Below the pieces are notes generated by a model. That model searched no databases, was not told the DNA's origin, and worked only from the letters and a program-made list of their open reading frames with translations. Below are positions 11,312 to 16,218 of a stretch of DNA of 64,000 nt, one piece after another. The stretch comes from Escherichia coli (lineage in GTDB: Bacteria; Pseudomonadota; Gammaproteobacteria; Enterobacterales; Enterobacteriaceae), in NCBI RefSeq assembly GCF_003790525.1, contig NZ_CP033635.1. One strand, written 5' to 3'. A program made the translations under genes and the position numbers. Position 1 is the stretch's first letter; each line of letters begins with the position of its first letter.

Positions 11312-11406
11312 GATCGTCTCTGGTTCAGGAAGTATTACAGGCAGTGTTGTGCAAATTTTGCGGATTATCAAATCCTTTTCTTCAACGCTATGTTATCGAT
11401 CTTGTA

Positions 11407-11436
11407 TCACTTTTTTGATGGAAGTTGTTTGTATTT
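11407..11436 (+). repeat. Direct repeat copy 1 (TCACTTTTTTGATGGAAGTTGTTTG[T/C]ATTT), about 75 bp upstream of mpaA
   Basis: 30 bp with one mismatch to second copy at 14518-14547. Confidence 0.6.
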
Positions 11437-11601: not shown

Positions 11602-12240
11602 TTACATGAAGAAGGGCTTATCACCATCAGTCCCGGGTTGATTGATGCCTATATTCTCACCAATGTGTTTCTCAGGTTTATCGATGATATCTGTGATTAA
11701 TGCTGCGACACTCTTACGTGATACGATCGTACCTTTGAATGGTTCATTGCGTGAGGTAAGCTCATAATCAATAATATCTTCATCAGTCAGCCAGGCAGGG
11801 CGAAGAATTGTATATTCCAGTCCAGAAGCCTCAATTGCATCCGCAGCCCTGCGGAATGGTTTTAGGGGTTCACCAATAACTGCATTATTCCATTCGCCAA
11901 ATTTTCCTGGAACTTCATCATAAATACCGAGGGAAAGAACAAAGATCAGACGTTTAACATCACAGGCTTTCATCGCAGCGATCACTGAATTTGCCTGAAT
12001 ATCTAAATCTTCCCCCGTAAGGTTGGCATACACAACATCCTGTCCCTGCATGGCCTGCTTCAGTGCTGCATGATTCAGTACATCCCCCATAATAATCTTG
12101 CTATTAGTTGGATAGGGTTTGTGGATTTTTGCTGGCTGACGGGCAAATAAAGTTTGTTTAATGGTTTGTTTATCTGCCAGTTGATTAATCACATGGCGGG
12201 CTATCTGACCGCCAGCACCAAGAATCAGTATATTTTTCAT
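11602..12240 (-). CDS. ymjC: NAD(P)-binding Rossmann-fold protein (NmrA/SDR-like), intact
   Basis: 212 aa; N-terminal MKNILILGAGGQIARH dinucleotide-binding motif; start overlaps stop of upstream small ORF. Confidence 0.8.
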   Translation of the reverse strand: MKNILILGAGGQIARHVINQLADKQTIKQTLFARQPAKIHKPYPTNSKIIMGDVLNHAALKQAMQGQDVVYANLTGEDLDIQANSVIAAMKACDVKRLIFVLSLGIYDEVPGKFGEWNNAVIGEPLKPFRRAADAIEASGLEYTILRPAWLTDEDIIDYELTSRNEPFKGTIVSRKSVAALITDIIDKPEKHIGENIGINQPGTDGDKPFFM

Positions 12241-12311
12241 GAAACTTTTCCCAGATTATTGGCAGCAATATGCCAGGCCATATCACTATTACGGATTTGA
12301 ATATGTTTCAT
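12237..12311 (-). CDS. ymjD: Small ORF (24 aa, MKHIQIRNSDMAWHIAANNLGKVS) translationally coupled between ycjY and ymjC
   Basis: Start ATG overlaps ycjY stop (TAATG) and stop TGA overlaps ymjC start (ATGA); not in ORF track because under 60 aa; name from recalled ycjY-ymjD-ymjC-mpaA operon. Confidence 0.5.
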   Translation of the reverse strand: MKHIQIRNSDMAWHIAANNLGKVS

Positions 12312-13243
12312 TACAGAGTTTCCTCAAAGAACGGAGCTAATACTGAAATTGCTTCAGCCACATAGACTTTGCCGTCATAAAGATCCATATGGTTTGCGCC
12401 TTCAACAATGTGATAGCGTTTATCCTTGCTTGATGCTCGATCGTACAGGTCGTCACTCATCCATTTGCTCCCAGCCTGGCTGCCCGCCACAATCTGTATC
12501 GGCTGAGTCAGGTACACTTCCGCCATATGGTAAGCATCATAGGTAATAATCTGGTTAAGGCTGCGCAAAGTAGCGTAACCCGGTGCTGTTGGATACTGCG
12601 CGCGAGGGGTGTGGTAATACTCCCAGGCCTGACGCAGTTCTTCGTTCGGCGCATCGGACTCCTTCATTGGTGCCAGTGGCATAGTGGCGTATTCTCCGCT
12701 GCTAATATCGCTGGTTCGGGCGTCTGAACCCGCGTCAACGTATGGTAGGGCATCAATAGATTTCACATTGTTTTCCCAACCATTACGGAACATCGAACCA
12801 ATATTGACCGCACTAACAGTACCGATGGCCTTGATGCGGCGATCCTGAATTGCAGCATTGGCTGTATATCCTGCTCCGGCACAAATTCCCATCGCACCAA
12901 TTCGGGTATTGTCGACATAAGAAAGCGTTGTCAGGTAATCAATCACGGCACTGACGTCTTCAGTACGAATGTATGGGTTTTCTAACTGACGCGGCTCGCC
13001 GCCGCTTTCACCTTGATAAGATGCGTCATAAGCAATAGTGACAAATCCCTTTTCCGCCAGTTTTTCGGCATAGGTTCCGGCCGTTTGCTCTTTAACGCCC
13101 CCACCTGGGTGAGATACCACAATTACCGGATACTGACGGGTTTCATCAAATTTTGGAGGGAAATAGATCACTGCAGACAAAGAGATGGTTGGATTATTGC
13201 TGTTAGTGAAGCTGACTTTATTATTCATCATTCCGTTCCTCAT
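12311..13243 (-). CDS. ycjY: Alpha/beta hydrolase (dienelactone-hydrolase-like, Cys nucleophile)
   Basis: 310 aa; nucleophile elbow G-I-C-A-G (GxCxG) in IGAMGICAGAGY. Confidence 0.88.
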   Translation of the reverse strand: MRNGMMNNKVSFTNSNNPTISLSAVIYFPPKFDETRQYPVIVVSHPGGGVKEQTAGTYAEKLAEKGFVTIAYDASYQGESGGEPRQLENPYIRTEDVSAVIDYLTTLSYVDNTRIGAMGICAGAGYTANAAIQDRRIKAIGTVSAVNIGSMFRNGWENNVKSIDALPYVDAGSDARTSDISSGEYATMPLAPMKESDAPNEELRQAWEYYHTPRAQYPTAPGYATLRSLNQIITYDAYHMAEVYLTQPIQIVAGSQAGSKWMSDDLYDRASSKDKRYHIVEGANHMDLYDGKVYVAEAISVLAPFFEETL

Positions 13244-13301
13244 GGAGTTGTCGGTTCGTTTTAACGGTTGGTGATATCACTATAGATATTGATCATTAAG
13301 T

Positions 13302-13350
13302 TGATTAGACCCAAAATCATGATTAGACCTATCATTTAAATGATTAATAG
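13302..13350. promoter_or_regulatory. Candidate operator repeats in divergent ycjY/pgrR promoter region
   Basis: TGATTAGACC at 13302 and 13320 plus TGATTAATAG at 13341, spaced about 18-21 bp, between divergent starts. Confidence 0.35.
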
Positions 13351-13368: not shown

Positions 13369-14268
13369 ATGAAGCGTGAAGAAATCGCTGATCTGATGGC
13401 GTTTGTCGTTGTTGCAGAGGAGCGTAGCTTCACTCGCGCAGCAGCCCGCCTGAGCATGGCGCAGTCAGCTTTAAGCCAGATAGTGCGCCGTATAGAAGAA
13501 CGATTGGGATTGCGGCTTCTGACGCGAACCACGCGCAGCGTTGTACCCACTGAAGCGGGCGAGCATCTTTTGTCTGTTCTTGGCCCTATGTTGCATGACA
13601 TAGATTCTGCCCTGACATCCCTGAGCGATCTGCAGAACCGCCCATCCGGGACAATACGTATTACTACTGTAGAACATGCAGCAAAAACGATATTGTTACC
13701 AGCTATGCGCACATTCCTGAAATCGCATCCTGAAATTGATATTCAGCTTACCATTGATTATGGTTTGACCGATGTCGTTTCTGAACGTTTTGATGCAGGC
13801 GTCCGTCTGGGTGGGGAGATGGATAAAGATATGATCGCCATTCGAATCGGGCCAGACATACCAATGGCTATTGTTGGCTCACCGGATTATTTTTCTCGTC
13901 GAAGTGCTCCAACGTCAGTGTCACAATTAATAGATCATCAGGCAATTAATTTGTATCTTCCCACATCGGGTACAGCAAATCGCTGGAGATTAATACGCGG
14001 TGGACGTGAAGTTCGTGTTCGCATGGAAGGTCAGCTTTTACTGAATACGATAGACCTGATCATTGATGCTGCAATTGATGGGCATGGATTGGCGTATCTA
14101 CCTTATGATCAGGTTGAGCGGGCTATTAAAGAAAAAAAACTGATACGTGTTTTGGATAAATTCACACCAGATTTACCCGGTTATCACCTGTACTATCCAC
14201 ACCGTCGACATGCTGGCTCGGCATTCTCATTATTTATAGATAGGCTGAAGTATAAAGGTGCTGTTTAG
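13369..14268 (+). CDS. pgrR: LysR-family transcriptional regulator (peptidoglycan recycling regulator)
   Basis: 299 aa; N-terminal LysR HTH (MAFVVVAEERSFTRAAARLSMAQSALSQ). Confidence 0.9.
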   Translation: MKREEIADLMAFVVVAEERSFTRAAARLSMAQSALSQIVRRIEERLGLRLLTRTTRSVVPTEAGEHLLSVLGPMLHDIDSALTSLSDLQNRPSGTIRITTVEHAAKTILLPAMRTFLKSHPEIDIQLTIDYGLTDVVSERFDAGVRLGGEMDKDMIAIRIGPDIPMAIVGSPDYFSRRSAPTSVSQLIDHQAINLYLPTSGTANRWRLIRGGREVRVRMEGQLLLNTIDLIIDAAIDGHGLAYLPYDQVERAIKEKKLIRVLDKFTPDLPGYHLYYPHRRHAGSAFSLFIDRLKYKGAV

Positions 14269-14517
14269 CACTACTTGCTGATACATTAATTTAATTCTTC
14301 TCTTAACGTATTCTCAGTTCCTTTCAACGTTTTGGTTATTTTTTATTCTTCGCACAATGGCGACAGATGCTGATTATGATACCGAAAACGGGTTTGAACG
14401 TGCGAAGCCCGAACGTAGTGTTCGGAGTTCTATGTGCTTTACCGCATTTTGGAGACTATTATTTACACTAAATCTGATTTGATATATTGATACTTAAAAC
14501 ATTTGATGCTTCCTTTG

Positions 14518-14547
14518 TCACTTTTTTGATGGAAGTTGTTTGCATTT
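14518..14547 (+). repeat. Direct repeat copy 2 (TCACTTTTTTGATGGAAGTTGTTTGCATTT), about 60 bp upstream of mppA
   Basis: Matches copy 1 at 11407-11436. Confidence 0.6.
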
Positions 14548-14604: not shown

Positions 14605-16218
14605 ATGAAGCACTCTGTTTCAGTCACGTGTTGTGTGCTGTTGGTCAGCAGCATTTCTCTTTCGTATGCTGCTGAAGTTCCGAGCGGCACAGTACTGGCA
14701 GAGAAGCAGGAGCTGGTGCGCCACATTAAAGATGAGCCAGCGTCGCTGGATCCCGCTAAAGCCGTGGGCCTGCCGGAGATTCAGGTCATTCGCGATCTGT
14801 TTGAAGGACTGGTGAATCAGAACGAGAAAGGGGAGATTGTCCCCGGCGTTGCGACTCAGTGGAAAAGTAATGACAGCCGTATCTGGACTTTTACCCTGCG
14901 CGATAACGCAAAATGGGCGGATGGCACACCGGTAACGGCGCAAGATTTTGTCTACAGCTGGCAACGTCTGGTGGACCCGAAAACGCTATCGCCATTTGCA
15001 TGGTTTGCCGCGCTGGCGGGAATCAACAACGCACAGGCGATTATTGATGGTAAAGCCACGCCTGACCAGCTTGGCGTCACCGCAGTTGATGCCCATACTT
15101 TGAAAATCCAGCTTGATAAACCATTGCCGTGGTTTGTGAATTTAACCGCTAACTTTGCCTTCTTCCCGGTGCAAAAAGCCAACGTAGAAAGCAGTAAAGA
15201 GTGGACGAAACCCGGAAATCTGATCGGCAATGGCGCTTATGTTCTTAAAGAGCGCGTAGTCAATGAAAAACTGGTCGTAGTGCCGAATACCCATTATTGG
15301 GATAACGCCAAAACGGTACTGCAAAAAGTGACCTTCCTGCCAATTAATCAGGAATCCGCAGCCACTAAGCGTTATCTCGCGGGGGATATTGATATCACCG
15401 AATCCTTCCCGAAAAATATGTATCAGAAGTTGTTGAAGGATATTCCGGGGCAGGTTTATACGCCGCCGCAGCTCGGGACCTATTATTATGCGTTTAACAC
15501 GCAAAAAGGGCCGACGGCAGATCAGCGCGTTCGCCTGGCATTAAGTATGACGATAGATCGCCGCCTGATGACCGAAAAAGTGTTGGGGACGGGCGAAAAG
15601 CCAGCGTGGCATTTTACACCAGATGTTACCGCGGGATTTACGCCGGAACCTTCGCCGTTTGAACAAATGAGTCAGGAAGAACTGAATGCGCAGGCAAAAA
15701 CTTTGTTGAGCGCAGCTGGTTATGGTCCGCAAAAACCGCTGAAGTTGACGCTTTTGTATAACACTTCAGAAAACCATCAAAAAATTGCGATTGCTGTAGC
15801 ATCGATGTGGAAAAAGAACCTGGGCGTAGATGTTAAATTGCAAAACCAGGAATGGAAAACCTATATCGATAGCCGTAATACCGGCAATTTTGATGTTATC
15901 CGCGCCTCGTGGGTAGGGGATTATAATGACCCCTCCACTTTCCTGACATTATTAACGTCAACGCATTCCGGGAATATTTCACGCTTTAACAATCCGGCAT
16001 ATGACAAAGTTCTGGCCCAGGCATCGACGGAAAATACCGTTAAAGCGCGTAATGCCGATTACAACGCGGCAGAAAAAATCCTCATGGAGCAAGCACCGAT
16101 TGCACCAATTTATCAATATACCAATGGACGATTAATCAAGCCGTGGCTGAAAGGTTATCCCATTAATAACCCTGAAGATGTGGCGTACAGTCGGACTATG
16201 TATATTGTGAAGCATTGA
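14605..16218 (+). CDS. mppA: Periplasmic murein tripeptide-binding protein (OppA paralogue, SBP family 5)
   Basis: 537 aa from MKHSVSVTCCVLLVSSISLSYA signal peptide. Confidence 0.9.
   Translation: MKHSVSVTCCVLLVSSISLSYAAEVPSGTVLAEKQELVRHIKDEPASLDPAKAVGLPEIQVIRDLFEGLVNQNEKGEIVPGVATQWKSNDSRIWTFTLRDNAKWADGTPVTAQDFVYSWQRLVDPKTLSPFAWFAALAGINNAQAIIDGKATPDQLGVTAVDAHTLKIQLDKPLPWFVNLTANFAFFPVQKANVESSKEWTKPGNLIGNGAYVLKERVVNEKLVVVPNTHYWDNAKTVLQKVTFLPINQESAATKRYLAGDIDITESFPKNMYQKLLKDIPGQVYTPPQLGTYYYAFNTQKGPTADQRVRLALSMTIDRRLMTEKVLGTGEKPAWHFTPDVTAGFTPEPSPFEQMSQEELNAQAKTLLSAAGYGPQKPLKLTLLYNTSENHQKIAIAVASMWKKNLGVDVKLQNQEWKTYIDSRNTGNFDVIRASWVGDYNDPSTFLTLLTSTHSGNISRFNNPAYDKVLAQASTENTVKARNADYNAAEKILMEQAPIAPIYQYTNGRLIKPWLKGYPINNPEDVAYSRTMYIVKH

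Follow-up and report, generated by a model that had tools for sequence, protein, structure and literature searches.

A LysR-type regulator gene, pgrR (ycjZ), and the alpha/beta hydrolase gene ycjY form a divergent pair in the 64,000-nt stretch of Escherichia coli DNA that was analysed (hereafter the window), with pgrR on the plus strand and its target on the minus strand (Table 1). The annotated ATG of ycjY lies at 13231 on the minus strand and is preceded by AGGAA, and the spacer that separates the two genes is 137 bp long with 34% G+C. Downstream of pgrR, the next gene is mppA (start at 14605), while an ORF encoding an NAD(P)H-binding protein of 212 residues and mpaA are located beyond ycjY. 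The 212-residue ORF (NAD_binding_10/NmrA-like) is intact in the window; in K-12 only a ymjC/ymjD pseudogene fragment occupies this position. The 801-nt stretch of the window that was tested is identical to E. coli SMS-3-5, and 80% or more of it is present in 5218 of the 5426 complete E. coli genomes. The pgrR-ycjY pair is also retained in Citrobacter, Serratia, Rhizobium, Agrobacterium and Kozakia.

Table 1. Features of the ycjY-pgrR locus, in window positions.
Feature	Position	Strand	Description
ycjY	12311..13231	-	alpha/beta hydrolase; divergent target gene
pgrR (ycjZ)	13369..14268	+	LysR-type regulator; HTH_1 and LysR_substrate domains
212-residue ORF	11602-12240	-	NAD_binding_10/NmrA-like
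37-nt direct repeat, ycjY side	11400-11436
37-nt direct repeat, pgrR side	14511-14547
Repeat copy 1	13302..13311	+	TGATTAGACC; direct reading of sequence
Repeat copy 2	13320..13329	+	TGATTAGACC; between Box 1 and Box 2, within predicted pgrR promoter spacer
Partial third copy	13341..13350	+	TGATTAATAG; TGAT at 13341-13344 is the right arm of Box 2
Palindrome	13315-13324		AATCATGATT
Inverted pair	13302-13319		TGATT-N8-AATCA
Box 0	13292..13305		ATCATTAAGTTGAT; ATCA-N6-TGAT; enteric sequences only
Box 1	13304..13317		ATTAGACCCAAAAT; ATTA-N6-TAAT perfect in three alpha-proteobacterial operators, one arm mismatch in enterics
Box 2	13331..13344		ATCATTTAAATGAT; perfect 14-bp palindrome, ATCA-N6-TGAT; arms invariant in 12/12 spacers
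Predicted pgrR sigma-70 promoter	13306..13335	+	TAGACC, 18-nt spacer, TATCAT; start near 13342
Predicted ycjY -10 hexamer	13284-13279	-	TATAGT; TAnnnT invariant in 12/12 spacers
Conserved operator-promoter block	13279..13348		70 bp; orthologous spacer alignment
Invariant A	13279		12/12
Invariant TAG	13283-85		12/12
Invariant ATT	13295-97		12/12
Invariant GATTAGA (within copy 1)	13303-09		12/12
Invariant AT	13316-17		12/12
Invariant G	13326		12/12
Invariant C	13328		12/12
Invariant TATCA	13330-34		12/12
Invariant T	13336		12/12
Invariant TGAT	13341-44		12/12
Invariant A	13346		12/12

Repeated words in the ycjY-pgrR spacer

The original prediction described a decamer pair at 13302 and 13320 with a third partial copy at 13341, placed between the divergent ycjY and pgrR starts. 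The sequence reads so, and all three copies fall between 13231 and 13369. Their start-to-start distances are 18 and 21 bp, so that the proposed spacing of two helical turns holds only roughly. The decamer TGATTAGACC has two exact occurrences in the 64-kb window, versus 0.06 expected, and two or more matches were obtained in none of 100 shuffles. When up to two mismatches were allowed, it was not enriched elsewhere in the window (37 found versus 43.5 expected). The hexamer TGATTA alone is common, with 73 copies in the window, and the third, partial copy therefore weighs little by itself.

A local null was made from 5000 dinucleotide-preserving shuffles of the 137-bp spacer alone. Among these, a 10-nt direct repeat arose in 65, one hexamer occurring three times within 50 bp in 83, a perfect 14-bp palindrome in 68, and nine TGAT/ATCA words in 11. 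Inverted symmetry, which the original prediction had overlooked, is equally abundant in the repeat region. In addition to the palindrome and the inverted pair listed in Table 1, a 16-nt unit is present twice, as ATCATTAAGTTGATTA at 13292 and as ATCATTTAAATGATTA at 13331.

Conservation of the spacer in Enterobacterales and on alpha-proteobacterial plasmids

PgrR orthologues with 85-88% amino-acid identity were found in Citrobacter, Kluyvera, Pseudocitrobacter, Shimwellia and Serratia, always with a divergent ycjY orthologue. In nine sequences from other genera, the 70-bp block had a mean identity to E. coli of 0.89, compared with 0.21 for the pgrR 5' UTR and 0.58 for the spacer flank next to ycjY, and the third-codon positions of pgrR were 0.42-0.52 identical in the same enteric comparisons. 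By this measure, the block is far more conserved than silent codon positions. Within it, conservation reached 0.98 in copy 1, 0.78 in copy 2 and 0.99 in the stretch between copies 2 and 3, and it stopped at 13348, inside the third copy. Copy 2 is exact only in Escherichia; it is replaced by TGATTGGACT in most other enterics and by CGATAGGACC in Serratia sp. PL17. Judging from these spacers, the exact decamer duplication is specific to Escherichia.

Within the species, 4476 of 5220 E. coli genomes have the 70-bp block without any change. A G13308A variant of copy 1 (TGATTAAACC) is carried by 54 complete E. coli genomes, position 13308 being otherwise invariant across genera and classes, and about 690 further E. 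coli genomes have other changes of one to three bases in the block. The predicted ycjY start site coincides with a perfect palindrome, GTGATATCAC (13271-13280), which is retained in full or almost so in E. coli, in one MAG and in two Serratia sequences, and which is not retained in the Citrobacter-like group or in the alpha-proteobacterial sequences.

Outside the enterics, the same arrangement, with a LysR gene transcribed divergently from one or two hydrolase genes of the alpha/beta type, was found on plasmids of Rhizobium tropici, Agrobacterium fabrum, Kozakia baliensis and A. pusense, whose regulators share 74%, 72%, 69% and 61% identity with PgrR, respectively. These alpha-proteobacterial plasmid modules adjoin IS, transposase or integrase genes. 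The YcjY proteins of E. coli and R. tropici are 84% identical in amino-acid sequence, an unusually high value for hosts so far apart and one suggestive of horizontal transfer. A PgrR-like regulator with one or two YcjY-like hydrolases is present on Klebsiella plasmids as well, likewise beside IS, transposase or integrase genes.

Twelve spacers (E. coli, enterics and three alpha-proteobacterial sequences) were aligned using GATTAGA as the anchor. The region 13277-13346 aligned without gaps across the E. coli, enteric and alpha-proteobacterial spacers. As many as 31 of its 70 columns were identical in E. coli and all three alpha-proteobacterial sequences, versus a mean of 12 and a maximum of 21 in column shuffles; third-codon identity between E. 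coli and the alpha-proteobacterial sequences was 0.34-0.42. The columns invariant in all 12 spacers (Table 1) map to the arms of inverted dyads and to a minus-strand TAnnnT. In the alpha-proteobacterial operators, only G13326 and C13328 of copy 2 are kept, and its TGATTA is not conserved.

The original prediction took the three direct repeats as the anatomy of the operator. Conservation points elsewhere: in the alignment, what is conserved is not the decamer but a set of 14-bp ATYA-N6-TRAT dyads. The best-conserved element is Box 2, which reads ATCA-N6-TGAT in all sequences, and a box of this type adjoins the regulator ATG in the Rhizobium, Agrobacterium and Kozakia plasmids. Box 0 was found in E. 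coli and seven of nine other enteric sequences and is absent from the alpha-proteobacterial operators. The dyad centres are at 13298.5 (Box 0), 13310.5 (Box 1) and 13337.5 (Box 2). The distance of 27 bp between the centres of Boxes 1 and 2 is the same in E. coli, Citrobacter, Rhizobium, Agrobacterium fabrum and Kozakia, and the Box 0 centre lies 12 bp from that of Box 1. Copy 1 is shared by two dyads, as right arm of Box 0 and left arm of Box 1. On the dyad model, TGATTA appears as direct repeats because the half-site (ATTA/ATCA, TAAT/TGAT) recurs. Box 2 is a candidate high-affinity (recognition) site and Box 1 a candidate activation-type site.

Two other elements were considered as the core site and rejected, namely AATCATGATT (13315-13324) and ATGAT-N7-ATCAT (13319-13335); both are kept in some enterics only and not in the alpha-proteobacterial operators. 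The loose pattern ATYA-N6-TRAT, with 18 matches in the window, discriminates too weakly to be of use. No match to ATCATTNNNNTGATTA with two mismatches or fewer lies upstream of ycjG, ycjX or mppA in the window; ycjG and ycjX, the other curated PgrR-regulated promoters in the window, are without a matching box. An 11-bp palindrome, TTGATAATCAA, is located at 4759-4769 upstream of ycjX and contains TGAT/ATCA words at a different spacing. The ycjX promoter was unresponsive to pgrR knockdown in PPTP-seq, with a log2 change of about 0.1 (PMC10505187).

The recognition-helix region of the regulator, MAQSALSQIVRR, does not vary among the homologues with a shared operator, one residue in Kozakia excepted. 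Homologues with MAQSALSQIVRR keep both boxes and their 27-bp spacing, and those with an altered recognition helix have altered boxes. The homologue on a Novosphingobium plasmid (56% identity) is associated with ATTA-N7-TAAT and ATAA-N7-TAAT, whose centres are 27 bp apart, and a metagenome homologue (53%) has ATTA-N7-TAAT just upstream of the LysR start. The occurrence of N7 boxes at an unchanged 27 bp suggests that one protein geometry reads both boxes, and the shift between N6 and N7 looks like a concerted one-base change in arm spacing. The dyads conserved in E. coli are of the form T-N10-A and not T-N11-A. Since distant homologues carry the canonical T-N11-A at the corresponding position, the E. 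coli form is, on this comparison, a one-base-shorter variant of the family box.

Predicted promoters and the probable PgrR operator

The predicted -35 hexamer of pgrR, TAGACC, falls inside copy 1, and Box 2 overlaps the predicted -10 hexamer and start site. Both hexamers and their 18-nt spacer are kept in the alpha-proteobacterial operators. The minus-strand TAnnnT stands at a fixed distance from Box 1, as TAGATT in Rhizobium and Agrobacterium and as TACCAT in Kozakia, and is best read as the -10 hexamer of ycjY. The ycjY start is accordingly placed, as a prediction, near 13272, with a poor -35 element, TAATCA. Counted from this predicted start, the centre of Box 2 falls at about -65.5, that of Box 1 at about -38.5 and that of Box 0 at about -26.5. 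Published in silico sigma-70 predictions gave TAGACC-18-TATCAT for pgrR and ATGATA-19-TCTAAT for ycjY, both of which overlap the repeats (PMC3946193). The published ycjY -10 element, TCTAAT, corresponds to 13309-13304 and differs from the TATAGT placement proposed here; by our count 20 nt separate its two hexamers, more than a sigma-70 promoter allows (PMC3946193). Another candidate promoter on the minus strand, TTCACG-18-TACAAT (13380-13351), was rejected, as it lies in a non-conserved stretch and is weaker in K-12.

The PgrR regulon of E. coli K-12 was reportedly described by Shimada, Yamazaki and Ishihama in 2013 (Genes Cells 18:123) and is said to be curated in RegulonDB/EcoCyc. The published K-12 regulon involves the same regulator, the same spacer and the same repression of ycjY-ymjDC-mpaA as considered here. 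PgrR (formerly YcjZ) was identified by genomic SELEX, the ycjY/ycjZ spacer being one of its targets, and PgrR was reported to repress the ycjY-ymjDC-mpaA operon (PMC5934670). The regulon as listed comprises ycjG, ycjXF-tyrR and ycjY-ymjDC-mpaA (PMC5934670; PMC4797297). In DAP-seq, the PgrR peak at the pgrR promoter reached 5632-fold (PMC10505187 Supplementary Data 6), in the same range as LacI at lac (4413-fold, PMC10505187). Knockdown of pgrR by CRISPRi raised the activity of the pgrR promoter by log2 0.97, and negative autoregulation was confirmed with a tunable-TF strain (PMC10505187). Upon the same knockdown, the ycjG promoter rose by 1.0 in LB, and the ycjY promoter showed a weak rise of log2 0.60 that was not called significant (PMC10505187). 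A full-text literature search for the decamer and the palindrome returned nothing relevant. A CRP site published as lying between ycjZ and mppA maps to 24770 in the window, away from the locus, and was set aside.

Taken together, these features suggest, with a probability of roughly three in four, that the repeats are part of a composite PgrR operator-promoter block (13279-13348) in which the ATYA-N6-TRAT dyads serve as recognition units. The earlier claim of a PgrR operator in the spacer is thus supported by SELEX, DAP-seq, autorepression and a 70-bp block that is conserved along with the regulator, and the conserved block is almost certainly the PgrR binding site already reported. Box 2 would be the primary PgrR site. 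Because Box 2 covers the predicted pgrR -10 hexamer and start, PgrR bound there would exclude RNA polymerase from the pgrR promoter, which would account for the autoregulation. A PgrR tetramer may also contact Box 1 and, in enterics, Box 0, and with these two boxes occupied, the predicted ycjY promoter would be covered over its -35 region and spacer. More speculatively, repression might be relieved by an effector that shifts the second dimer from one to the other of Boxes 0 and 1.

Four other explanations were weighed against this composite operator-promoter block. Three direct TGATTA(GACC) repeats at about two-turn spacing, each bound by one PgrR subunit or dimer, would fit the statistically unusual exact duplication of the 10-mer and the retention of all three TGATTA/TGATTG words in enteric orthologues. 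We nevertheless consider this arrangement unlikely: the alpha-proteobacterial regulators have the same recognition helix, yet their operators do not keep copy 2, the GACC extension varies between copies outside Escherichia, and copies 1 and 3 have, in all lineages, an inverted partner at a fixed arm spacing of 6 bp. The DNA-binding domains of LysR-type proteins bind dyads as dimers, which also counts against it. A little less probable still is that the repeats and their conservation reflect only the overlapping back-to-back promoter elements of pgrR and ycjY, with no regulator site. RNA polymerase holoenzymes do bind the spacer in vitro (PMC3946193, PMC5493296), and the repeats coincide with TAGACC-18-TATCAT of pgrR and with ATTAGA, the minus-strand TCTAAT of ycjY. 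Since promoter hexamers and boxes overlap, sequence conservation by itself cannot tell regulator binding from RNA polymerase binding. Against this reading, dyad arms are conserved outside the hexamers (TGAT at 13341-13344, AAT at 13315-17 and ATT at 13295-97), the Box 2 palindrome has no mismatch, DAP-seq gave a very high PgrR peak at the pgrR promoter, and the published ycjY hexamers are too widely spaced for a sigma-70 promoter.

It is even more doubtful that the main reader of the repeats is another protein, whether UlaR, H-NS or a sigma-E RNA polymerase acting on GGTCTAA on the opposite strand of the decamer. Opposite each decamer there is indeed a -10-like word, GTCTAA, that resembles the sigma-E -10 element, but the sequence 16 nt upstream of either TCTAA has no GGAACTT-like -35 element, matching it at two of seven positions at most. 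The RpoE holoenzyme gave a strong SELEX peak at the spacer (17.2, among its stronger ones), and both pgrR and ycjY were called RpoE-dependent (PMC5493296). UlaR gave a 57.5-fold DAP-seq peak and a ycjY promoter response of log2 2.19 in LB, and the response of this promoter to H-NS was 0.88 (PMC10505187). The PgrR DAP-seq signal is nevertheless about 100 times that of UlaR, and conservation of the block follows the PgrR gene onto alpha-proteobacterial plasmids, for which UlaR and sigma-E of E. coli are of no relevance. Finally, the low G+C content of the spacer and the commonness of TGATTA could point to a chance product of AT-rich DNA or to an RNA element in the 5' UTR. Each feature, however, was equalled in no more than 0.2-1.7% of the local shuffles, and the cross-class conservation is strong. 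The spacer region had no Rfam match, and its predicted RNA folding was no better than that of shuffled sequence (z = -0.42). Chance and an RNA element are effectively refuted.

In canonical divergent operators of LysR-type regulators, such as BenM/benA, CbnR/cbnA, AtzR/atzDEF and OccR, a recognition site is located near -65 and activation sites near -35, and a sliding-dimer model applies. The dyad-based PgrR block is similar in that pgrR is divergent from its target, the strong dyad overlaps the predicted promoter of the regulator itself, the weaker dyad or dyads lie nearer the target promoter, and the block of about 65-70 bp has the size of a footprint. Its boxes, at about -65, -38 and -26 when counted from a predicted rather than mapped start, would also fit the canonical layout. 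Unlike the canonical T-N11-A, the PgrR dyads are T-N10-A with arms 6 bp apart, and PgrR is described as a repressor only, with no known effector. The block shares most features of a LysR divergent operator and misses T-N11-A by one base. Nod-box and NahR-type half-sites take the forms ATC-N9-GAT and TTCA-N6-TGAT. Here, too, ATCA/TGAT-type arms form an interrupted dyad, although the arms read ATC-N8-GAT and the regulator belongs to another subfamily with other targets.

The ycjY-pgrR pair as an accessory cassette

The two 37-nt direct repeats of Table 1 are 89% identical (TC..T.TCACTTTTTTGATGGAAGTTGTTTG.ATTT) and bracket a 3.1-kb segment containing the ymjC/D-like ORF, ycjY and pgrR. Of 5426 complete E. 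coli genomes, 173 contain an uninterrupted match (98-99.3% identity) to a synthetic 'empty site' in which the two flanks were joined across a single copy of the 37-nt repeat. In these 173, strain 2014C-3075 among them, mpaA and mppA are adjacent and divergent. The empty site reads TTGCCGG, versus TTGATGG in both occupied repeat copies. The 37-nt repeats, the empty sites and the plasmid-borne homologues together indicate that ycjY-pgrR is an accessory insertion/deletion cassette in the mpaA/mppA promoter region.

The interaction of PgrR with the spacer is already in the literature, and confirming the site adds little. What is added here is a base-level model of two or three dyads, a predicted back-to-back promoter pair and a ranking of the repeat copies. 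This model, like the conservation across classes and the cassette context, is a modest addition and may or may not be in print.

A broader proposal, to which we give somewhat less than even odds, is that PgrR and YcjY constitute a self-contained, horizontally mobile cassette with its own two-box operator, and that the reported role of PgrR in peptidoglycan recycling is a secondary outcome of the site at which the cassette inserted, through read-through from ycjY into mpaA. PgrR would then primarily control YcjY, in answer to an effector related to the YcjY substrate. The operator accompanies the regulator-hydrolase pair from one bacterial class to another, and in E. coli the pair lies between mpaA and mppA as an accessory insert; if this holds, the PgrR regulon would have to be read differently, with the substrate of YcjY as the likely signal.
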